Source of the DNA: an uncultured Planctomycetia bacterium
GTDB lineage: Bacteria > Omnitrophota > Gorgyraeia > B26-G9
Reading direction: 5' to 3'
Length of the DNA stretch: 64,000 nt
Assembly: GCA_964437495.1 (NCBI GenBank)
Contig: CAYTGV010000001.1
Location: forward strand, 28,552 to 92,551
This document shows positions 504-53,705 of the stretch, one piece after another. The notes under the pieces were generated by a model. It searched no databases and had not been told where the DNA came from. It worked only from the letters and a program-made list of their open reading frames with translations. Every line of letters begins with the position of its first letter. Positions within the stretch are counted from its first letter, which is position 1. A program made the position numbers and the translations under genes.

Positions 504-1307
504 TTAATCTAACCATTTTCTCGGCGGCCTCCTTAAGTAACGCTCCGTAAACACCCCATCATCAATACCCAGGTCATACTCTATATTTGAAAAATCTATT
601 ACGGTTTTTGAGTTCGTCAACAAATCTTTTGCCTGAGATTTTACTACTGTAGGATGCCCCTGTATATCTTTTACCTCTAAAGCCGTTATAACCTTATATA
701 GTTTGCCTTTTTTATCATAGTACTCCGCCTTGACCGGCAGATAACTTTCTTTATTAATATAAATTTCAAAATAAGAAAATTCTACCTCATCTGCTTTCTT
801 CGGAGTATTCTTTATCTTATACATATCCCCTTCGCTTGAAACAAGCTCATGAGTATCCAATGTCAGGCCTCTGCCTGAGATATCCTCATAAACAAAATTG
901 CTTCCTACAAAACTTGACCGCTTATCACTTGCGGCAATTCTCCTTACAAGATCAAGCGCCGGCAAATACATCCATCGATCATCGTCTTTATCTATATACT
1001 TCCAAACCATGTACACCATATCTTGCACATCCACCGGTTTATTAAAATAAACATAATATTTCTGTTCCTTGCCGTCTTCAATATCAAAACGTAATATTGT
1101 AAACTCTCGAACCCTCTTTCTACCCTGATTATCTGTAATCGTCATCTTAACTTTTGCCCGTCCGTCATTACCTCCATAATAAGCAGTATTATTAGCCTTA
1201 GTTATTATCTCTTCAAGGGATTCCTCCGCAGATACTGTCCTCGTCAACCCAAGAAAAATAATCAAGCTAAAACAAATCAGCATTCCTAAAAAAATATTTT
1301 TTTTCAT
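504..1307 (-). CDS. LolA-like / outer-membrane lipoprotein-sorting-domain protein, partner of the adjacent MMPL exporter
   Basis: 267 aa with an N-terminal signal peptide (MKKNIFLGMLICFSLIIFLGLTRTVSA). Directly abuts the RND/MMPL exporter gene; this pairing is known from hopanoid-type (HpnN) MMPL loci. Confidence 0.5.
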   Translation of the reverse strand: MKKNIFLGMLICFSLIIFLGLTRTVSAEESLEEIITKANNTAYYGGNDGRAKVKMTITDNQGRKRVREFTILRFDIEDGKEQKYYVYFNKPVDVQDMVYMVWKYIDKDDDRWMYLPALDLVRRIAASDKRSSFVGSNFVYEDISGRGLTLDTHELVSSEGDMYKIKNTPKKADEVEFSYFEIYINKESYLPVKAEYYDKKGKLYKVITALEVKDIQGHPTVVKSQAKDLLTNSKTVIDFSNIEYDLGIDDGVFTERYLRRPPRKWLD

Positions 1308-3836
1308 TTACTCCTCCTTTTTATTTTCTATGAAACAGCCTGGGTATTCCGAAGCTTTAGAACAAACACCAGCCATTATACCTACAACTACAATACTTGC
1401 TATCAACGTTATACTCCATGAGATGTTTGTATAGCCACGTAGTATATATATAAGAGCCACTGATACAGCAACAGCAATAACCTGACAATATTGACAATTG
1501 CAAAGCATCTTTACCCCTTCTTTTTTTAAGATAACCTCAGGCAGCATAATCATGAGTGCCGGCAGAATAAATAATGTGGCAATACTTGAAACAAACATGA
1601 TCGTAAACATAAAAAAACCTACTGTTCGGTAAGGAATAAGCGGTGCCAGCAAAAGCGGCAGAAATCCAATAGCAATAACAAAAGCATTCCTGCTAATTGC
1701 CCGCGCAGGACCTTTAAACATCTTCTGCACAGTCTCTTGCAAGTTATTATTCTTTCCGTAAAGCACCCTTGCCCGTTCAATAAAATGGATAGCAAAATCT
1801 ATAGACAGCCCTAAGGTCAACGCGGAAAGAACAACAACCGGCATATCATAATCCTTGCCTATAAATCCCAGTAAACTGTAAATAAAAACTATAGTCAAAG
1901 TCAAGGGGATCATTGAGATCAGTCCCCGCAAAGGAGAACGGAACAAGAAAGTCATCATAAAAAACACGATAATAAAACTGCCGATAAAATTCATAAGCAT
2001 ACCAAAAACCATCTTGTTCTGCCAAACCACATTTATAAAAGTCAGCCCGGCCCAGTTATAACTAAGCTCAAAAGGCGGCTTATTTGCCTTTATAAAATCA
2101 TCTACCTGTTTAATAACCCTGCCCATATCCTTATTATCGCCGCTTTTAAGCTGAACCCAGATATTAATCTTTCCATAATCCGGAGTAGCCATATGCCAAA
2201 GATCATCCGGTTTATGAGAATTTTCATAAGATATAAGACATTGCGCAATAGCACGCTTTGTCTTAGGCATAACATTATTGGTTTTGTCTCCTCCCAGCAG
2301 CTCATAATAGACCTTCTTTACAATATCTGTCAGCGCTGTTGTTTTCCCTACATCGCCTTTCGCAAGAAGACTAGCCTGTAATTTTTCAACATACTTAAGC
2401 ATTTTGGGTTCAAGAAAAACCTCAGCCTTTTTATCTTTAGCCTCCAGAACAAGATAAGCCATATACGTACCAGCAAAATGTTTATTTAATATCCTGTCCG
2501 CTATCCTGATTGGATGATTTTTTTTGAACCAGCGCACCGGATTATCGTTAACATTAATTTTAGAAATTCCGTAGAATGAGATTATTGCCAATAAAATACT
2601 GCTTATAATTATGCCTTTATACCTTTTCAGAACAAATCTATGTATATTTTCAAGAACCTTATTCATTAAACCCTGCTGCGTGACACCATCTTTATTTTCA
2701 ATCTTGCAATTTTTAAATGATCTTTCTCTCATCAGCGCGATATAAGCCGGAATGAATGTTAAAGTCAGAAACCAGGCAATCATCACCCCAATAGAAACAA
2801 ATACTCCAAATGTCTGCACCGGAGGAATAGGTGAAAAAGACAAGGAAAAAAATCCCACTGCTGTCGTCAATGAGGTATAAAGCATGGGCGTAAACAGTTC
2901 ATTCATAACAGCGAAAATAGTGCTGCCCTTTTCTCCCGTAACCCTGTATTTATCCGAAAACTCGCTTAAAATATGGACAGAATTAAGTACGGCTATGGGC
3001 ATTAAGAAAATAGGGATCATCGAACTCATGATATGCACAGGAAACCCCAGGCCTATCAATAGTCCCATTGTCATAACAACTGTTGAAATAGCAAGAAGCA
3101 TGGGAGAGATTATTAAGGTAATACTCCGAAAGAAAAGAAACATAAGCAGAAAAATTATCAAACCAGCTAGGGGAGCGGACATGGCCATCTGTTTAAACAT
3201 TTCAACCCCAAATGTATCCTCAGCCACCGGTAAACCCGTAATATAATACTTTTCTTCCCCCTTGAACTGTTTTACAATATTATAGATATTCTGCGAAACC
3301 CTGTAGCTTATATTTTTTCGCTCTATAGGCACATAAACACATAAGGCCTTTCCATCTTCTGACACCATCGTTCCGTTGAACATAGGATTATCCAGAGCCT
3401 CATCCCTAAGAAGAAAGGCTTCTTTTTGTGTGCTCAATGGCCCTTTCATTAGCCATTCAAAGACTACCGAACCGACCATTCCCTGGCGAATATTATCCTT
3501 TGTCGACGGAGCAATTATTTCCCGCGCAATCACACCATCAATACTCTTTATGGCTTCGGTAAGTTCATATATTTTATTTAATGTCTCAACATTAAAGACC
3601 CCGTTATCGTCATGCTCATTAACTATCCCAACAACAATAAAATCATAAATAGCAAATTCTTTTTTTACTTTGTGATGAAAAACCCTGGCAAATTCAGTTT
3701 CAGAAAGCATGTTTTCCGGGTCAGTATCGACTTTTATCTTCGAAAACTGGAACAAAGCAATACCAATTAGAAATATAGTAATCGCCATGATAGTCTTCGG
3801 ACGGTTAAAAGAAAACTTAATTATATTCTTGAACAT
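1308..3836 (-). CDS. MMPL/RND-superfamily exporter (COG1033-type)
   Basis: 842 aa with two bundles of about 6 TM helices separated by large soluble loops, typical of MMPL/RND predicted exporters. Start ATG at 3836 is preceded by a G9 run in the ribosome-binding site. Confidence 0.8.
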   Translation of the reverse strand: MFKNIIKFSFNRPKTIMAITIFLIGIALFQFSKIKVDTDPENMLSETEFARVFHHKVKKEFAIYDFIVVGIVNEHDDNGVFNVETLNKIYELTEAIKSIDGVIAREIIAPSTKDNIRQGMVGSVVFEWLMKGPLSTQKEAFLLRDEALDNPMFNGTMVSEDGKALCVYVPIERKNISYRVSQNIYNIVKQFKGEEKYYITGLPVAEDTFGVEMFKQMAMSAPLAGLIIFLLMFLFFRSITLIISPMLLAISTVVMTMGLLIGLGFPVHIMSSMIPIFLMPIAVLNSVHILSEFSDKYRVTGEKGSTIFAVMNELFTPMLYTSLTTAVGFFSLSFSPIPPVQTFGVFVSIGVMIAWFLTLTFIPAYIALMRERSFKNCKIENKDGVTQQGLMNKVLENIHRFVLKRYKGIIISSILLAIISFYGISKINVNDNPVRWFKKNHPIRIADRILNKHFAGTYMAYLVLEAKDKKAEVFLEPKMLKYVEKLQASLLAKGDVGKTTALTDIVKKVYYELLGGDKTNNVMPKTKRAIAQCLISYENSHKPDDLWHMATPDYGKINIWVQLKSGDNKDMGRVIKQVDDFIKANKPPFELSYNWAGLTFINVVWQNKMVFGMLMNFIGSFIIVFFMMTFLFRSPLRGLISMIPLTLTIVFIYSLLGFIGKDYDMPVVVLSALTLGLSIDFAIHFIERARVLYGKNNNLQETVQKMFKGPARAISRNAFVIAIGFLPLLLAPLIPYRTVGFFMFTIMFVSSIATLFILPALMIMLPEVILKKEGVKMLCNCQYCQVIAVAVSVALIYILRGYTNISWSITLIASIVVVGIMAGVCSKASEYPGCFIENKKEE

Positions 3837-3841
3837 TCCTA

Positions 3842-3850
3842 CCCCCCCCC
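3842..3850 (-). repeat. Homopolymeric C9 (G9 on the coding strand) tract inside the ribosome-binding site of the MMPL exporter
   Basis: Minus strand reads AAGGGGGGGGGTAGGA-ATG. This is the only G/C homopolymer of 8 or more in a roughly 35% GC window. Confidence 0.7.
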
Positions 3851-4012
3851 TTAAAGGATTAGATGAATTTAAAAAAATGCACTGCTTTTAAACATACAAA
3901 TATATATTTATATTAATGATTTGTTTTTAAAGTAAACATACCGCTTTAACATTAAAATATTGTTTATTATTATATTATTGCGCTTCTTATTGTCAATACA
4001 ATATTATCTTGA

Positions 4013-4246
4013 TCATACCGCGATTAAACAGCTATCAATCTTCGGCTGATCAAATCCAATAATAACAGTACCATCTATATCAATTACAGACACCCCCATC
4101 TGACCAGAAAGTTTAATCATTTCCTCTGCTTTAGTTTTATCGATGGAAACATCAATTGATTAATATGCTATGCCTTTTGAAGAAAAATACTTTTTAGCCA
4201 TTGTACAGTAAAGACAAGTTGGCATTGAATAAATTTTCACCTCCAT
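4013..4246 (-). pseudogene. Glutaredoxin-like (NrdH/Grx thioredoxin-fold) gene with an in-frame TAA at 4160..4162
   Basis: A single frame reads MEVKIYSMPTCLYCTMAKKYFSSKGIAY-*-SIDVSIDKTKAEEMIKLSGQMGVSVIDIDGTVIIGFDQPKIDSCLIAV. It has the CxxC redox motif and Grx-family hallmarks (a C-terminal ...VIDIDG...GFD... block), and GGAG lies about 8 nt upstream of the ATG. Homologues usually have E or K where the stop falls. Confidence 0.55.
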
Positions 4247-4281: not shown

Positions 4282-4764
4282 TTAATTTGTTATTTTTTTT
4301 CTAAACTCTGTCAATACTATGACATGCCTTTTTTCTTCTCTTATAATACTATCCAGCAACTCTTTCTTATCATCTAACACATATTCCTTTAATGCTGTGT
4401 AGACAAGTATTGATTCTTTTTCTATCTGTAATCCAAAATCCAAAGCCTCCAGAGTACTCGCAAACAATTCCTCTGTTTTTCTCTTTATTAACTCAGGGGT
4501 GAATATATAAGTCACAGCTATTGCTTCTAAATAAGCATCATAATCTCCCACACCAAATTCTTTAATGAAATAATCTCCAGAGCTCTCAAGCATCTTTTTA
4601 AATCTGCTTTGATGGCCTATTTCCTGCTCTTTTAAAAACTTCCAAACAGACTTTATTTTTTTGTCCTCTGCCTTTTCTTCAAGCTTAGCGTAAAGCTACT
4701 CGCCATTTTCCTCTACCTTCAAAGCAATATCAAGAATTTCCTGCGGACTCCAATTATTATTCAT
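4282..4764 (-). pseudogene. Ferritin-like / rubrerythrin-family diiron protein with an in-frame TAG at 4696..4698
   Basis: A single frame reads MNNNWSPQEILDIALKVEENGE-*-LYAKLEEKAEDKKIKSVWKFLKEQEIGHQSRFKKMLESSGDYF...EKRHVIVLTEF. It has two E..H diiron-type motifs. The track ORF 4282..4593 is only the part after the stop; same frame, no frameshift. Confidence 0.55.
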
Positions 4765-4774
4765 CTTTGCTCCT

Positions 4775-5953
4775 TTATCCGGATATTAACTGTTTTATTT
4801 TACTGACCACACCCTTTAGGCCCTCAAGATCACTCTCATCCGGAACAAACTGCATATAAATCCCATCTTCTATAATCTGCATACCTGCCTCTTTTAATCC
4901 CTCTTCAAGCTCTTTAAATCCTATCTTTGCCCAGCCATATGAACCAAAGCTAAGCGCAAACCTGTTTTTAGGCTTTAATCCCTTTAAGTAAGTCAGGAAT
5001 CCACCCATGCTCGGCAATATCTGATTATTAAGGATAGCACTTCCCAAAAGGACAACCTTTGATCTCATAACTTCTGTTATCGCATCTGAGAAATCCGATG
5101 TTTTTAAACTAAGCTTTACAACAGGAATACCTTCCCTGTCAAGCAAATCACCTAATTCAAAAGCAATCTTTTCCGTAGAATGCCACATAGTATCATAAAT
5201 AATGACCGCTCTGTTATCAGACTCGTAGTTTGCCCATTTTTTGTAAAGTTGTAATATTTTTTTTATATTTTCTTGTTTTTTCCAAATCAGTCCGTGAGAC
5301 GGACATATCATTTTAATATCCAGGGATTTTAAAGCCTCAAGCACCTTAAGAACCTGCGCTCCGTAAGGCATCACAATATTAGCATAATACTTTGCTGCTG
5401 CCTCAAAAACTATATCCGCTCCAACCTCATGGACATAACGCTCAGAGCTTGCATGATGCTGACCGAAAGCATCGTTAGGGAACAAGATCGAATCATCCGG
5501 CGAATAGGTTGCCATTGAATCAGGCCAATGCACCATGGGCATCAGAAAAAACTTCAATATCCTTCTGCCTATTTTTAGCTCATCGCCAGTATTGACAACT
5601 TTAAACTTCCAATCTTTCTTAAAATGCCTCTTTAGCCCCTTTTCCCCAGCCAGAGAACACACGACCTCTGCCTTAGGACAAAGCTCAAGCATCTTTTCAA
5701 TGCATCCAGAATGGTCCATTTCAGTATGATTTGAGATTATATACTCTATCTTCGAGGGATCAATAACCGCTTTGATCCTAGAGGCCATCTCATCAAAACC
5801 ATAATGCTTTACAGTATCTATCAATGTCGGCTTTTCATCAACAATAAGATAGGCATTATAAGTGGATCCAGTAGGAGTGGAATACCCGTGAAAATTACGC
5901 AGTTCCCAATCAATATCCCCAACCCAATAGATATCTTTTTTTATCTCTGTCAT
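4775..5953 (-). CDS. Flavodiiron protein (rubredoxin:oxygen oxidoreductase / FprA family)
   Basis: 392 aa with an N-terminal metallo-beta-lactamase-like diiron domain (HWPDSMATYSPDDSILFPNDAFGQHHAS) and a C-terminal flavodoxin-like domain. Confidence 0.9.
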   Translation of the reverse strand: MTEIKKDIYWVGDIDWELRNFHGYSTPTGSTYNAYLIVDEKPTLIDTVKHYGFDEMASRIKAVIDPSKIEYIISNHTEMDHSGCIEKMLELCPKAEVVCSLAGEKGLKRHFKKDWKFKVVNTGDELKIGRRILKFFLMPMVHWPDSMATYSPDDSILFPNDAFGQHHASSERYVHEVGADIVFEAAAKYYANIVMPYGAQVLKVLEALKSLDIKMICPSHGLIWKKQENIKKILQLYKKWANYESDNRAVIIYDTMWHSTEKIAFELGDLLDREGIPVVKLSLKTSDFSDAITEVMRSKVVLLGSAILNNQILPSMGGFLTYLKGLKPKNRFALSFGSYGWAKIGFKELEEGLKEAGMQIIEDGIYMQFVPDESDLEGLKGVVSKIKQLISG

Positions 5954-5981
5954 TTGAATTCCTCTTAAAAGTTTCTTTGGT

Positions 5982-6122
5982 TTATTTTACTTCCTTAAAC
6001 TGATCTTTGCCTACCCCGCAATCAGGACAAACCCAGTCGTCCGCAAGCGCCTCAAAAGCCACATTATTATTCTCTGCCGGGTCATAAATATATCCGCAAA
6101 CTATACATTCAAATTTTTTCAT
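5982..6122 (-). CDS. rub: Rubredoxin
   Basis: [19 protein letters not shown]...[19 protein letters not shown] has two CxxCG knuckles. Internal start of track ORF 5982..6206, with GGAGG upstream. Confidence 0.9.
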
Positions 6123-6136
6123 ATTTCCTCCTTTAA

Positions 6137-6457
6137 TTATTTTATCAAACCGCTTAACATGCTCACCAGCTTTTCCTTTGGGACCACCCCCACTGACTCT
6201 CCGCAAACCTGTCCCTTATTAAAAATCAAAACCGTGGGAATACTCATCACTCCATATCGAGTTGCTACATCAGGAGCATCATCAACATTCAATTTACAGA
6301 TCTTTACTTTTCCATTATATTCATTAGCCATTTCATCTATAAGCGGTGTTAATATACGACAGGGACTGCACCATTGGGCCCAAAAATCTATAAGCACCGG
6401 AATGTCTGATTTAATAACTTCTTGTTCAAAATTTTCTGTACTTAGCGCTAAAGCCAT
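6137..6457 (-). CDS. trxA: Thioredoxin (variant WCSPC active site)
   Basis: 106 aa with thioredoxin-fold signature ...[13 protein letters not shown]... and ...[14 protein letters not shown]... Confidence 0.85.
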
Positions 6458-6619
6458 TCTTTTGCTTCCTCCTTATTTTTAAGATTTTAGAACAAATTAA
6501 TATCCTATTTTGCCAGCTCATATATTTTATCTTCTATTAATTCAGCATCTTTTTCTTCTTCAATCAGCAAATTTAAAAACATTTCACGCGCAACAAGCTG
6601 TTCCTAATCCAGGCGCTGA

Positions 6620-6650
6620 TAAAGATCATGCGCCTGCCTATCCTTATGAG
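6620..6650 (-). terminator. Putative stem-loop terminator downstream of the SOR gene
   Basis: Inverted repeat caggcgc...gcgcctg with a T-run nearby on the minus strand, lying between the sor stop (6662) and the trx start (6457). Confidence 0.3.
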
Positions 6651-6661
6651 AATAGCCTTAT

Positions 6662-7057
6662 TTATACAACTGTTATTTTTTTTGTGCTTTCCCACAAACC
6701 GTGTATATTACAATAACTGATTGCAATCAAGCTACCTGATTTTTCTGTTTTTATAGTCAAATTTACTGATGGCTGTGTATATATACCGCTTGTATTAGCT
6801 CCCTGCGCCGATGCCCCATGTGAAGCTAGCTCTGTACGCGCGATTTGATATGGAAATTTCTCTCCATCTGCCAGAAAATATACTGAAATCCAAGCGATAT
6901 GATGCTCTGAAGTATTGGGATGCGCTATTTCTTTACCAACCGTTATATTAAAATCCAAAGCATCTCCCTTTTTGATATTATCTGCTGATTCTATTGCCGG
7001 CACATGCTTTTCTGTTTTCCAATCTGCACTTTGAACCAGATCTTTTGCAATGGTCAT
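6662..7057 (-). CDS. sor: Superoxide reductase, 1Fe neelaredoxin/desulfoferrodoxin class
   Basis: 131 aa with EKHVPAIE, HPNTSEHHIAWISVYF and CNIHGLWES motifs (the His4-Cys iron ligand pattern of SORs). Confidence 0.85.
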   Translation of the reverse strand: MTIAKDLVQSADWKTEKHVPAIESADNIKKGDALDFNITVGKEIAHPNTSEHHIAWISVYFLADGEKFPYQIARTELASHGASAQGANTSGIYTQPSVNLTIKTEKSGSLIAISYCNIHGLWESTKKITVV

Positions 7058-7073
7058 TTAATACCTCCTTTTG

Positions 7074-7577
7074 TTAGAACTTTTTGAACATTTCCTTTTT
7101 AACGCCGCAAATAGGGCAAAAATCCGGATATTCGTTTTCTGCTGTAAATCCGCAAACAGGACACACATAGAAATCTACTGAATCGATATCCTTATTCGCA
7201 TCTACAGCAACTTTTGTTTTCTTATACATAGTCTCATGGATTTTTTCAGCCTCAAGCGCATAATGAGCTGACCTTGCTGCATTTTTTTCCCCCTGCTTTT
7301 CAGCCTCAGCCAAATAGGCAGGATACATTTCCTCTACCTCAAAATGTTCTCCGCTTATAGCCACCGGCAGATTATCCACACTTGTTCCAATGCCGCCAAA
7401 AACTTTTAGATGATTGCCAGCGTGAACTCGCTCTGCATAGGCTATGGCCCGGAAAAGCCTGGCCACATTCAGTTTACCTTCTTTTTCTGCTATATCAGCG
7501 AATATAAGATATTTCATATGCGCCTGCGATTCTCCAGAAAAAGCATTTTGCAAATTTTGTTTCGTCATTTCATGCAT
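7074..7577 (-). CDS. rbr: Rubrerythrin
   Basis: 167 aa with an N-terminal ferritin-like diiron domain (E..H pairs) and a C-terminal rubredoxin-like CPVCG...CPICG. Confidence 0.9.
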   Translation of the reverse strand: MHEMTKQNLQNAFSGESQAHMKYLIFADIAEKEGKLNVARLFRAIAYAERVHAGNHLKVFGGIGTSVDNLPVAISGEHFEVEEMYPAYLAEAEKQGEKNAARSAHYALEAEKIHETMYKKTKVAVDANKDIDSVDFYVCPVCGFTAENEYPDFCPICGVKKEMFKKF

Positions 7578-7642
7578 AATTTTCTCCCTTCAATGAGCAT
7601 ATCACTTAAGGAACAAAGTAACTTAAGCGATATATGCGAATT

Positions 7643-7697
7643 AACCCCGCCATGGCGGGGTTGATCCCCCCGCCTGTTTTGCCCTTGCAAAACAGGC
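7643..7697 (-). terminator. Two tandem GC-rich hairpins between the regulator-reductase operon and rbr
   Basis: aaccccgccatggcggggtt is a perfect 20-nt palindrome at 7643..7662. gcctgttttgc-cctt-gcaaaacaggc is an 11-bp stem at 7672..7697. Both lie just 3' of the stop of gene 7716..8426. Confidence 0.5.
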
Positions 7698-7715
7698 AGA
7701 TATTATCACTACATT

Positions 7716-8426
7716 CTAATAACCTATGAAATTTTCCGCCATTATCCAATTTTTATCACAGCCTGATTCAACACATAAGTCTTTCATGGCCTTGACCATA
7801 ACCGGTGGACCGTAAATAAAAAATCGCCTTGCCGTTAAATCCTGCAACCGGCCGCTTAACAATTCGCCAGATATATGCCCATGCACGCATATATCATCTT
7901 TAGGCTCGCAATCAGTAACCGTATATACAACCTGCATATTTTCATTAAGCCTGTTCCAGGAATCAAGTTCCCGCCTAAAGGCAATCTCCTCCTTATTTCG
8001 ATTCGAATAAAAAAGAATTATGTCTATACCCAGTTTTTTTTCCATAATATATTCCAGAATAGAAATAACCGGGGTAATGCCAATGCCTCCGATAAGAAAT
8101 CCTATCTTTTTATAATCTTCTTTAAATATACAGTTTCCCATCGGCCCCTGCATTAAAAGACTATCTCCTAGCTTTAATCCTTTCAGTCTTGCCGAAAAAG
8201 AACTCTCGCTCAAGCGCTTTGTAACCTCAACATAGTCCTTCTCAGGTGAGACTGAAAAAGAAAGATATTTATTAAGATCTTTATTCTGCAGAGCTTTATC
8301 ATCAAAAACAACTTTCACAAACTGCCCGGGCGCAAAAGTAATCTTTTCACTGGTTTTAAAACAAAAACTCTCCACGCTCGGAGTCCTTTTAATCCTTTGA
8401 ATTAGTTCTGCGGAAAATGTATTCAA
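7716..8426 (-). CDS. FNR-like FAD/NAD(P)-binding oxidoreductase (ferredoxin-NADP reductase family), candidate NAD(P)H:rubredoxin-side reductase
   Basis: 236 aa with an FAD-binding barrel (QFVKVVF...YLSFSVSP) and an NAD-binding Rossmann domain (GFLIGGIGITPV). Overlaps the upstream regulator gene by 4 bp. Confidence 0.7.
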   Translation of the reverse strand: MNTFSAELIQRIKRTPSVESFCFKTSEKITFAPGQFVKVVFDDKALQNKDLNKYLSFSVSPEKDYVEVTKRLSESSFSARLKGLKLGDSLLMQGPMGNCIFKEDYKKIGFLIGGIGITPVISILEYIMEKKLGIDIILFYSNRNKEEIAFRRELDSWNRLNENMQVVYTVTDCEPKDDICVHGHISGELLSGRLQDLTARRFFIYGPPVMVKAMKDLCVESGCDKNWIMAENFIGY

Positions 8427-8866
8427 CTCTCAGCTCTTCCTTTATTTTCACTATTAACAGCCCCAACCCGGCACTCACGGCAAATACCGTAAAAATATCC
8501 CTGAAGTTCCTGGATCACATGCCCGTCTACCTCGGATCTCTGCAGAGTCAGACAGAGAGGTATATCAACATCAAAAACTTTTTTGCATTTTTTACAATAG
8601 AAATGATGGTGAGCATCCATTCTGCTATCATAGCATGATTTATCAAAATTAATTCTTATCTCTCTCGCCAAATTTTTCTTACCGTAAAGCTCTAAAATAG
8701 TATAAATTGTAGCCAAAGAAATAGCCGGAAATTTATCTTTCATTTTCCTGTAAATCTCATCAACAGTCAAGTGCTTATTTGTATTGCACAATAGATCATA
8801 AACTCCCAGCCTTTGAGGAGTAATACGAATGCCTTTTTCTTTAAGTATTGCGATTTTATCTTTCAT
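8423..8866 (-). CDS. Fur-family transcriptional regulator (PerR-like peroxide sensor)
   Basis: 147 aa with an N-terminal winged helix and C-terminal HHHFYCKKC...CRECR metal sites. First gene of the oxidative-stress island, with a Fur/Per box upstream. Confidence 0.8.
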   Translation of the reverse strand: MKDKIAILKEKGIRITPQRLGVYDLLCNTNKHLTVDEIYRKMKDKFPAISLATIYTILELYGKKNLAREIRINFDKSCYDSRMDAHHHFYCKKCKKVFDVDIPLCLTLQRSEVDGHVIQELQGYFYGICRECRVGAVNSENKGRAES

Positions 8867-42009: not shown

Positions 42010-42690
42010 TTATCGCTTCCTATTGCGTAAAAAAGAAGCAAACACAAATCCCCCTGTGAAACCACCTATATACGCCCACCAGGCTACCTTAACCAGGCCT
42101 TGCCTTGAACCCGGCAAAGTAAAAAATCCATTTAAGAACTGGATAAGAAACCATATACCTAAAAAGAAATATACCGGCATCTCCGCCACAGTCCAAAAAA
42201 TAAACACCGAAAACAAAATTATTATTTTTGCCCCAGAAAAAACAACAAATACGCTCCAGGGACACCAGAAATACATCCGCTTGCCCCCAAAGCAGGCACA
42301 TTAGAATGAATATTTAAATATATGCGTAAAATTTCCAACAAGACCACACAAAATATAAAAGATTAAAAATTTAAAGTGCCCTAATTTATCTTCGGCATTA
42401 TCTCCCAATATCCACAAATACCACATATTCCTCAGTCAATGAAGCCAGCCGGCATGCAGAAAAAGTGAACTTATCAAAGATATTATTCCGGCAATAGCCT
42501 GCGATAATGTCCAGGCCCGCATATTTAAAAAAGCCTCAGGAACTACCGCAAATCTAGAAATCACTTCTTTAAGTTACGATCCAAGCAAAATTTCCTTTAA
42601 AAATATATATATATGCGATTATCAGCAAAATAGTTACCAGCGCCAACCTTCTTGCCTTAGCCTTATCGCGCAAAGGTATCAATATGAAAC
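42010..42690 (-). pseudogene. Decayed rhomboid-family intramembrane protease gene (frameshift plus in-frame TGA and TAA)
   Basis: One frame from 42573 to 42010 reads ...SLFLHAGWLH-*(TGA 42436..42438)-LRNMWYLWILGDNAEDKLGHFKFLIFYILCGLVGNF...-*(TAA 42301..42303)-...VFSGAKIII...VAWWAYIGGFTGGFVF. It carries the rhomboid H..N, GxSG-like and AHxxG motifs. The TM1-like piece RRLALVTILLIIAYIYIF sits upstream in another frame. Track ORF 42010..42276 is the C-terminal fragment. Confidence 0.55.
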
Positions 42691-52334: not shown

Positions 52335-53705
52335 TTAAAGCTGCTTGAAAAACTTATCCTCAAATATCGTCCCTTGATTAAGAACAAGATCAGGATCTAT
52401 TGTCTTTTTAATAATAGCCATTTCACGCAACCCTTTAACGCCAAGCATAATTTTAAGATATTTCCGTTTTAATTTACCGATTCCATGTTCTGCTGAAACA
52501 GTTCCTCCCAATCTAAGGCCTTCCTTGACAAACTCAAGGTAAAGATTTTTAGCCCTTTGAAAATCGTTTTTAGTTTTCGGCATTAAATTAACGTAAAGAT
52601 GATTTTCCCCGATATGGTCGAATACGCAATATTGCATACTGCTGTTTTCAAGTGCGCGTTCATAGAAATCAAACATCCCCGGAAAATGCCTATCTGAAAC
52701 CGCAATATCAGTATTAATCTTCGAAAACCCGTTTTCTTTAACTCTTTCATTTATAAAAACCGGCAAATCGTAGCGCATTGCATTAATAGGAATCTAGCGG
52801 TATTTCGGCCTGAGCATATCAAGAGAGAAGACGTCAAAATATTCAATACAACTAGCATCAATATCGTTATTTTTAGCAGATTTTCGGCTGGTATATGTTA
52901 GTTTTTTAGATTAAAAACAAATTCCAGTGCCTGCATTTTGGTTTTAAAAAAGACTACTCCGTTAAACTCCTGTTCCGGCAATTCACAGAGGATTACTTTG
53001 ATCTTACTTATCATACCTAAAATACCCTCACAACCAATAAACAAGTCAATCAGATCACTACCGGAAAAGATATAATAATCGACAGAATTTTTAACTTTAG
53101 GCAGGCGGTAGCCGGGCAAAGCACAGAATAATGGCTTGTTTTTAATAGGAATATAGAGCCTGTTTTTAACAAAACAATTACCTCTTTGGATATCAAGTAA
53201 TTGCCCTGTGGACAGGATAATATACAGGCCAAGGATATGCTTTCTTGTTGAACCGTATTTAAAACCTTTAGCCCCGGAGGCATTGGTAGCTACGGTTCCC
53301 CCCAAGATATGCATTTTTTTCTGTAGGATCAAGTAAATAGGTGAGTCCGTATTTAGCAGCCTCCAGGCATAACTGCTCAATGCTCACGCCAGGCTCTATA
53401 ACTGCAAATCCCCCAGGCTTGTCCGGAAATTTTTTAATATCAACTATTTTGTTTAGTTTTTCAGTTGAAATTATTGAACCACTCAAGGAAATTCTACCTC
53501 CCACAATACCGGTTTATGCTTCGAATATAGTCAGGGGCATTTTTCCAGAAGCAGCTTCTTTAAAATAAGCAATTGCCTCATATTCAGTTTTAGGAAAAAC
53601 TATTTCCCGGGCATTTCCACAACTCAACCCAGAACTATCCTGTAAATAATCTTTGAATGTATCTATATTCTTTTTTCGTAACATAATTAACCTAATTACC
53701 TTCAT
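52335..53705 (-). pseudogene. FAD-linked oxidase (GlcD / D-lactate dehydrogenase family) gene broken into at least 4 pieces
   Basis: Track ORFs 53514..53705, 53268..53504, 52898..53380 and 52335..52778 together span an FAD_binding_4 domain (...GGNxxTNASGAKGFKYG...) and the C-terminal ...SAEHGIGKLK...DPDLVLNQG. Lesions: an in-frame TAA at 53514..53516 (...LTIFEA*TGIVGGRISL), a frame change inside a G6 homopolymer at about 53299..53304, and a stop/frame break in 52779..52897. Confidence 0.6.

Follow-up and report, generated by a model that had tools for sequence, protein, structure and literature searches.

The interrupted ferritin-like gene

On its minus strand, the window (the whole 64-kb stretch of DNA analyzed here, which belongs to an uncultivated Omnitrophota bacterium) carries a PerR/Fur-headed operon of oxidative-stress genes, in which a ferritin-like gene is the second-to-last and a glutaredoxin gene the last member. 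The features of the ferritin-like gene are as follows.

4282..4764, minus strand: ferritin-like gene (PF02915, TM1526-like) of 160 codons, broken at codon 23; probable young pseudogene
4696-4698, minus strand: in-frame TAG, codon 23 of the ferritin-like frame
4770..4775, minus strand: Shine-Dalgarno motif AAGGAG, located 5 nt before the start codon (ATG at 4764) of the ferritin-like gene
4282..4593, minus strand: residual 103-aa open reading frame (ORF), which begins at an internal ATG (codon 58) and does not contain E18 and E48/H51

The frame starts with ATG at 4762-4764 and ends with TAA at 4282-4284 (minus strand), and its translation from 4764 to 4282 reads MNNNWSPQEILDIALKVEENGE, the internal stop, LYAKLEEKAEDKK...EQEIGHQSRF...KKITN and the terminal stop. 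A previous sequence-only reading had described an in-frame TAG at 4696..4698 within a gene of the ferritin-like/rubrerythrin family and had proposed a profile search across the stop. Both the translation and this search bore the description out, as the alignment of the read-through product with PF02915 (Rubrerythrin) was continuous over the stop and covered residues 9-148 with 38.2 bits, compared to a Pfam cut-off of 22.8 bits. The 103-aa ORF by itself reached 17.6 bits and thus remained below this cut-off. It accounts for 64% of the protein, in agreement with the earlier view that the ORF 4282..4593 is only the C-terminal two thirds of the gene.

The first 22 residues of the frame are nearly identical to the N-termini of the intact 160-aa orthologues, and the AAGGAG motif shares bases with the TAA that ends the flavodiiron (FprA) gene upstream. 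Together, the Pfam alignment across the stop, the orthologue N-termini and the AAGGAG motif indicate that the 22 codons preceding the TAG are genuine coding sequence. The sequence-only reading was imprecise about the exact position of the break, which it had placed between the first E..H helix pair and the second. The TAG is actually part of helix A, where it separates the Glu of the first E-x6-Y motif (E18...Y25) from the Tyr, and consequently cuts off all ligands but one. The base immediately 3' of this TAG is a C.

Protein family, predicted fold and diiron ligands

In a 25-sequence alignment of the ferritin-like family, all eight motif residues of E18-x6-Y25, E48xxH51, E115-x6-Y122 and E144xxH147 were invariant or nearly so. 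The window sequence retains these four motifs together with every other residue that is invariant in the family. The occurrence of the E-x6-Y/ExxH motif set in both helix pairs is a feature of the archaeoferritin/PF1190 branch of the ferritin-like superfamily (PMC3401498). A profile of the Omnitrophota family matched the structure 1vjx over its full length (E = 8e-18), and NCBIfam contained no model for this family.

An AlphaFold2 model of the hypothetical read-through product (pLDDT 82, pTM 0.80) showed a four-helix bundle with helices at residues 7-31, 35-60, 104-126 and 131-159. The first match of this model in a Foldseek search of the PDB was again 1vjx (TM 0.72, 26% identity). The 160-aa sequence has zero cysteines and hence no CxxC pairs, and the rubredoxin-like domain PF21349 was absent from the gene, matching the 167-aa rubrerythrin gene only. 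Based on the missing rubredoxin domain, the protein is, as judged from its sequence, a stand-alone domain of the 'erythrin' type rather than a rubrerythrin proper.

Homologues and the ancestral codon

A search of 5.8 billion clustered proteins with the ferritin-like protein retrieved 54 matches, the sole short entry among them being the 103-aa ORF of the same organism (P0012). The other 53 homologues were uninterrupted throughout and 155-170 aa in length (~160 aa). Those with a named source all derived from metagenome-assembled genomes (MAGs) of Candidatus Omnitrophota, and the closest ones shared 84%, 82% and 78% identity with the window sequence. The sequence-only reading had considered that a shorter protein with its own ribosome-binding site might be the normal form in relatives; the uniform length of the 53 homologues and an ATG at 4593 that is not preceded by such a site speak against this. 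None of the homologues, and no sequence found in scans of genome and metagenome contigs, had a stop at codon 23.

The alignment column of codon 23 is variable, with H, Q, R, L, N, K, S and G represented among the 25 aligned sequences. For comparisons at the DNA level we used two relatives on long contigs, namely GCA_054039915.1 (referred to as L004) and the Logan assembly of SRR33089659 (referred to as L005). Codon 23 is TAG in the window, CAG (Gln) in L005 and CGT in L004; in the second-closest homologue (82% identity), which is the nearest one whose DNA was read, it is CAG. A single C-to-T transition suffices to convert the CAG of the relative into TAG, and the sequence comparison suggests CAG (Gln) as the most likely ancestral codon.

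Contig scans were also used to search for closer relatives. A degenerate DNA pattern around the stop had no match in the metagenome contigs, and in the genome contigs the same pattern recovered two more distant Omnitrophota MAGs only. A protein-based scan of the metagenome contigs yielded relatives at 38% identity only. Near-identical strains, whether TAG-bearing or TAG-free, were not found in the contig scans, and there was no relative with >90% identity.

Reproducibility of the stop codon across assemblies

The TAG is identical in three separately assembled contigs (ENA ERZ27316756, ENA ERZ27317826 and JGI 3300031645), and over 1.9-12 kb the ferritin-like region shows 100% identity among these two ENA and one JGI assembly contigs, which may stem from related samples of one site and therefore demonstrate the reproducibility of the sequence rather than its presence in independent populations. 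The concern attached to the sequence-only reading that the stop could be missing from the raw reads is countered by the assemblies, since at least three datasets that were assembled separately contain the TAG without a single base difference. At the assembly level, the complete identity across separately built assemblies makes an assembly or sequencing error very unlikely.

An artefact of this kind, or a minor allele that entered the consensus while the gene is intact in the population, deserves mention insofar as the data consist of metagenome assemblies throughout. Besides the agreement among the independently built ENA and JGI assemblies, this explanation is opposed by the record of the 103-aa product also from NCBI and Logan sources, by the type of change, a substitution rather than an indel in a homopolymer, and by the lack of any intact variant with >84% identity among the 5.8 billion clustered proteins. 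Hence, we regard it as highly improbable.

Losses in the oxidative-stress operon

Several other features of the operon and of the adjoining region differ from those of the relatives or are shared with them.

4775..8866, minus strand: intact upstream part of the operon, with genes assigned by Pfam (Fur/PerR-like regulator, FAD/NAD-binding reductase, rubrerythrin, desulfoferrodoxin, thioredoxin, rubredoxin and flavodiiron protein)
6505-6657, minus strand: remnant of a 58-aa half-ferritin-like gene (tblastn 6645-6508, E = 5e-16)
4013..4246, minus strand: glutaredoxin (YruB-like) pseudogene; the Pfam Glutaredoxin match spans its stop
3837..4012, minus strand: AT-rich spacer; in relatives the place of an ArsR-type (HTH_5) regulator gene, which is deleted in the window
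3996..3969, minus strand: sigma-70-like promoter TTGACA-16-TATAAT with perfect consensus, conserved with L004

The genes that remain in the upstream part of the operon are arranged in the same order as in L004 and L005. In these relatives, the gene order is Fur, reductase, rubrerythrin, desulfoferrodoxin, ferritin, 58-aa protein and thioredoxin, followed by rubredoxin, FprA, ferritin-like protein, glutaredoxin, HTH_5 regulator and MMPL transporter. The dN/dS values of this intact upstream part are 0.05-0.19, and the core genes for the detoxification of O2 and reactive oxygen species (rubrerythrin, desulfoferrodoxin, rubredoxin, FprA and thioredoxin) are all intact and under strong constraint (dN/dS 0.04-0.12).

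The ferritin gene, which encodes 161 aa and is located between desulfoferrodoxin and thioredoxin in the relatives, is deleted in the window (region 6458-6661), and tblastn detected no remnant of it in the window. Along with this whole upstream gene, the neighboring 58-aa gene lost its start and its first ~10 codons. An in-frame TAG (6604-6606) interrupts what is left of it, and Asp has taken the place of the His in its ExxH motif. For the intact 58-aa protein, no Pfam match is on record for the copies of the relatives and no NCBIfam family exists; judging by its sequence, it resembles a two-helix E...ExxH unit, for which dimerization would be necessary.

The glutaredoxin gene is interrupted at codon 29 by an in-frame TAA (4160-4162), which corresponds to GAA in both L004 and L005. 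As the sequence-only reading had stated, the ferritin-like gene is thus the second gene with an in-frame stop in this operon, about 500 bp from the glutaredoxin case (measured distance to the TAA, 536 bp). Including the 58-aa remnant, three reading frames of the operon are interrupted by stops (two TAG and one TAA) within 2.5 kb. The glutaredoxin frame has additional damage: its CPYC motif is changed to CLYC, the cis-Pro53, an invariant Pro in 13/13 homologues, is replaced by Ser, and a 1-nt indel is located close to the 3' end. Its leave-one-out score against the profile of intact orthologues was 138 bits, and all of the intact orthologues scored higher (150-165 bits). These changes point to a relaxation of selection on glutaredoxin after its inactivation. 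No gene was called at 4013-4246 in the public assemblies.

The promoter at 3996..3969 lies upstream of the MMPL transporter gene and is now ~130 nt from the start of this gene. A run of nine G (3842-3850, minus strand) occurs in the ribosome-binding region of the MMPL gene, where the window reads TAAGGGGGGGGGTAGGAATG and the relatives read AAAGGAGGAATAA; by its sequence, this run could be a slipped-strand (phase-variation) tract. The MMPL transporter (1308-3836, minus strand) has 120 lineage-specific amino-acid changes versus 39 and 29 in the relatives, and its TP_0789-like partner (504-1307, minus strand) shows a milder excess (29 versus 18 and 11). The excess of changes in both proteins may be linked to the loss of the upstream regulator.

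Other disrupted genes in the window

Outside the operon, two more genes of the window are broken.

52335-53705, minus strand: FAD-linked oxidase (GlcD-like) pseudogene (Pfam FAD_binding_4 and FAD-oxidase_C)
42010-42682, minus strand: rhomboid-family protease pseudogene, ~5 short ORFs in different frames

The FAD-linked oxidase gene is split into at least four pieces by a TAA at 53514-53516, at least one frameshift, a TAA at 52898-52900 and a TAG at 52794-52796, and its fragments are identical in the ENA, JGI and Logan SRR8862235 assemblies. Separate pieces of the rhomboid gene match positions 24-59, 59-87 and 81-141 of the Pfam Rhomboid profile. In total, at least five reading frames are disrupted within the 64 kb. 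When five further intergenic gaps were inspected visually in all six frames, no more gene remnants were seen; a small intact L28-like gene was noticed at ~12.27-12.5 kb.

Genetic code, recoding and the residual open reading frame

The accumulation of three in-frame stops in one operon would also be expected if TAG, and perhaps TAA, were sense codons in this organism, owing to pyrrolysine, a suppressor tRNA or an altered code, and the gene were normal. The use of stop codons in the window is at odds with this idea. Among 59 long ORFs, 33 end in TAA, 13 (22%) in TAG and 13 in TGA, and these ends fit the lengths of the orthologues: the FAD/NAD-binding reductase of the same operon, for example, has 236 aa and ends in TAG, and its orthologue in L004 also has 236 aa. 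This standard use of TAG, including that in the operon reductase, indicates that the genetic code is not reassigned. Neither a suppressor tRNA nor a Pyl or CUA tRNA was detected in the 64-kb window, whose three tRNAs are the ordinary Gly, Tyr and Thr types. Furthermore, one of the three frames with a stop is a remnant that has no start and borders a deletion, other broken genes have frameshifts, and at the sites of the stops the relatives show ordinary codons for Gln, Arg, His or Glu. A sense-codon function of these triplets is thus hardly credible, even less so than an artefact.

Programmed recoding at the TAG is poorly supported, since no stop is conserved at this site among the 53 homologues, no RNA element was detected and TAG is not depleted as a terminator in the window. 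The Rfam search revealed no further element in the window, and the predicted RNA structure around and after the TAG (121 nt) was no better than that of shuffled sequences (z = -0.12).

Gene callers annotated the 103-aa ORF in every assembly, and this ORF keeps the helix C/D half-site (E115, E144 and H147), which could suggest that the C-terminal piece, or a split protein made of two pieces, is functional. Yet the internal ATG58 (4593) has no Shine-Dalgarno motif, compared to the AAGGAG or GGAGG found at the true starts of the operon. Its score against PF02915 falls short of the Pfam threshold as described above, and none of the 53 relatives has a protein of this length. The N-terminal piece comprises 22 aa only, and no start codon is located between the TAG and codon 58. 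On these sequence grounds, the 103-aa ORF does not appear plausible as a functional product, and we give very little credence to a working short or split protein.

Age of the lesion and selection on the reading frame

The ferritin-like frame was scored by the leave-one-out approach against a profile of the intact orthologues and reached 300 bits, which is within the range of the intact orthologues themselves (282-315 bits). Ten amino-acid changes are unique to the window lineage, compared to 12 and 16 in the two relatives, and the pairwise dN/dS of the gene is 0.13-0.16; these dN/dS and relative-rate tests have low power, as the nearest relatives are at dS ~0.9-1.6. Apart from the stop, the frame shows no secondary damage and no sign of relaxed selection, and in this respect it differs from glutaredoxin.

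An otherwise undegraded frame is expected if the mutation is recent, and equally well if the frame is still selected by means of leaky readthrough. In the latter case, a near-cognate tRNA-Gln would read the TAG and restore Gln, yielding a reduced amount of full-length protein, and the ORF would remain under purifying selection. Consistent with such leakiness, the ORF past the stop is intact, the ligands are all kept and the branch is not accelerated; the position of the stop tolerates H, Q, R, L, N, K, S or G, CAG and TAG differ at the first base only, and the TAG is followed by C. In E. coli, a C after the stop is a comparatively weak termination context. Against leakiness, 0 of 53 homologues have a stop at this site and no stimulatory RNA structure was found, and a recent mutation likewise predicts an intact ORF. 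The adjoining glutaredoxin gene, whose TAA is followed by T, a context of strong termination, is plainly decaying. The other lesions of the locus and of the window are deletions and frameshifts, which are beyond rescue by readthrough. Relatives at dS ~0.9-1.6 are too distant for the two possibilities to be separated by the substitution data, and it is the decaying genomic context that favors a recent mutation. We therefore consider leaky readthrough unlikely, albeit less so than any of the alternatives discussed above.

Origin and consequences of the stop codon

From the compared sequences, we conclude that the ferritin-like gene is most likely a young nonsense pseudogene, which arose by one recent C-to-T change in an eroding locus, rather than a case of recoding. 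According to this scenario, a CAG (Gln) in helix A, at a position that is variable and does not supply a ligand, would have become TAG by a single C-to-T transition. Ribosomes would still start at the normal Shine-Dalgarno motif and ATG, and would stop translation once 22 residues have been made. The 137 codons beyond the stop, which include five of the six diiron ligands, would not be translated into a working protein, so that presumably no useful ferritin-like protein is made. As the ferritin-like and glutaredoxin genes stand at the end of the operon and MMPL has its own promoter, the stop probably has no polar cost.

The stop in the ferritin-like gene would then belong to a broader erosion of the operon locus that is specific to this lineage, the other events being the deletion of ferritin, the truncation of the 58-aa gene and its stop, the stop and subsequent decay in glutaredoxin, and the deletion of the ArsR-type regulator. 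The losses concern ferritin, two ferritin-like proteins and glutaredoxin, a pattern which suggests that selection on functions in iron storage and thiol redox has been relaxed. Such a relaxation, as might occur in a stably anoxic niche or in the course of genome reduction, may be the common cause of the lesions. It is doubtful, although slightly less so than leaky readthrough taken by itself, that the stop merely turns the gene down through readthrough at TAG-C, or that the lesions mark an Omnitrophota lineage which is dismantling its iron-storage and thiol-redox module due to genome reduction or a shift of lifestyle. A search of the literature on Omnitrophota and pseudogenes retrieved nothing relevant.

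As a probable ordinary nonsense pseudogene, the ferritin-like gene has no bearing on an open mechanistic question. Its recognition mainly affects annotation: the 103-aa 'hypothetical protein' of every public assembly is best labelled as the tail of a ferritin-like pseudogene, and a pseudogene label is likewise appropriate for the glutaredoxin gene, which lacks an annotation, and for the remnant of the 58-aa gene. Moreover, the 64 kb contain at least five disrupted genes, and the operon has two lineage-specific deletions, which together suggest a noticeable and possibly genome-wide loss of genes in this Omnitrophota population. Such gene loss, notably in iron storage and thiol redox, is a possible marker of niche specialization or host dependence.

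Comparison with known systems

The best match of the ferritin-like family by both sequence and fold is TM1526 of Thermotoga maritima (PDB 1vjx, a 'putative ferritin-like diiron-carboxylate protein'). Both are single-domain four-helix bundles of ~155 aa without a rubredoxin domain, and the window copy differs from TM1526 by the stop at codon 23. Since TM1526 has no established biochemical function, this comparison informs on fold and family and not on activity.

The next-closest structure is that of PF1190 from Pyrococcus furiosus (PDB 2fzf), for which the match is weaker than for TM1526 (E = 7e-9, confined to the N-terminal half; fold E = 0.015). The likeness to PF1190 and to the 'archaeoferritin' PF1196 (PMC3401498) extends to the missing rubredoxin domain and to a setting of iron and oxidative-stress genes that include Fur, whereas the window gene is interrupted. 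Iron-storage behavior has been shown for PF1196 (PMC3401498).

With the rubrerythrin proper of the window (the 167-aa gene at 7074..7577), the ferritin-like gene shares PF02915 and the oxidative-stress operon, but it does not have the C-terminal CxxC...CxxC rubredoxin-like FeCys4 domain. The gene as it stands also resembles the ordinary nonsense pseudogenes of bacteria that are losing genes, which have the same kind of single-base premature stop in a gene that is otherwise conserved, fixed in the sampled population and accompanied by neighboring deletions, frameshifts and stops. The sole difference from these is that the window copy appears to be young and has not undergone secondary decay.
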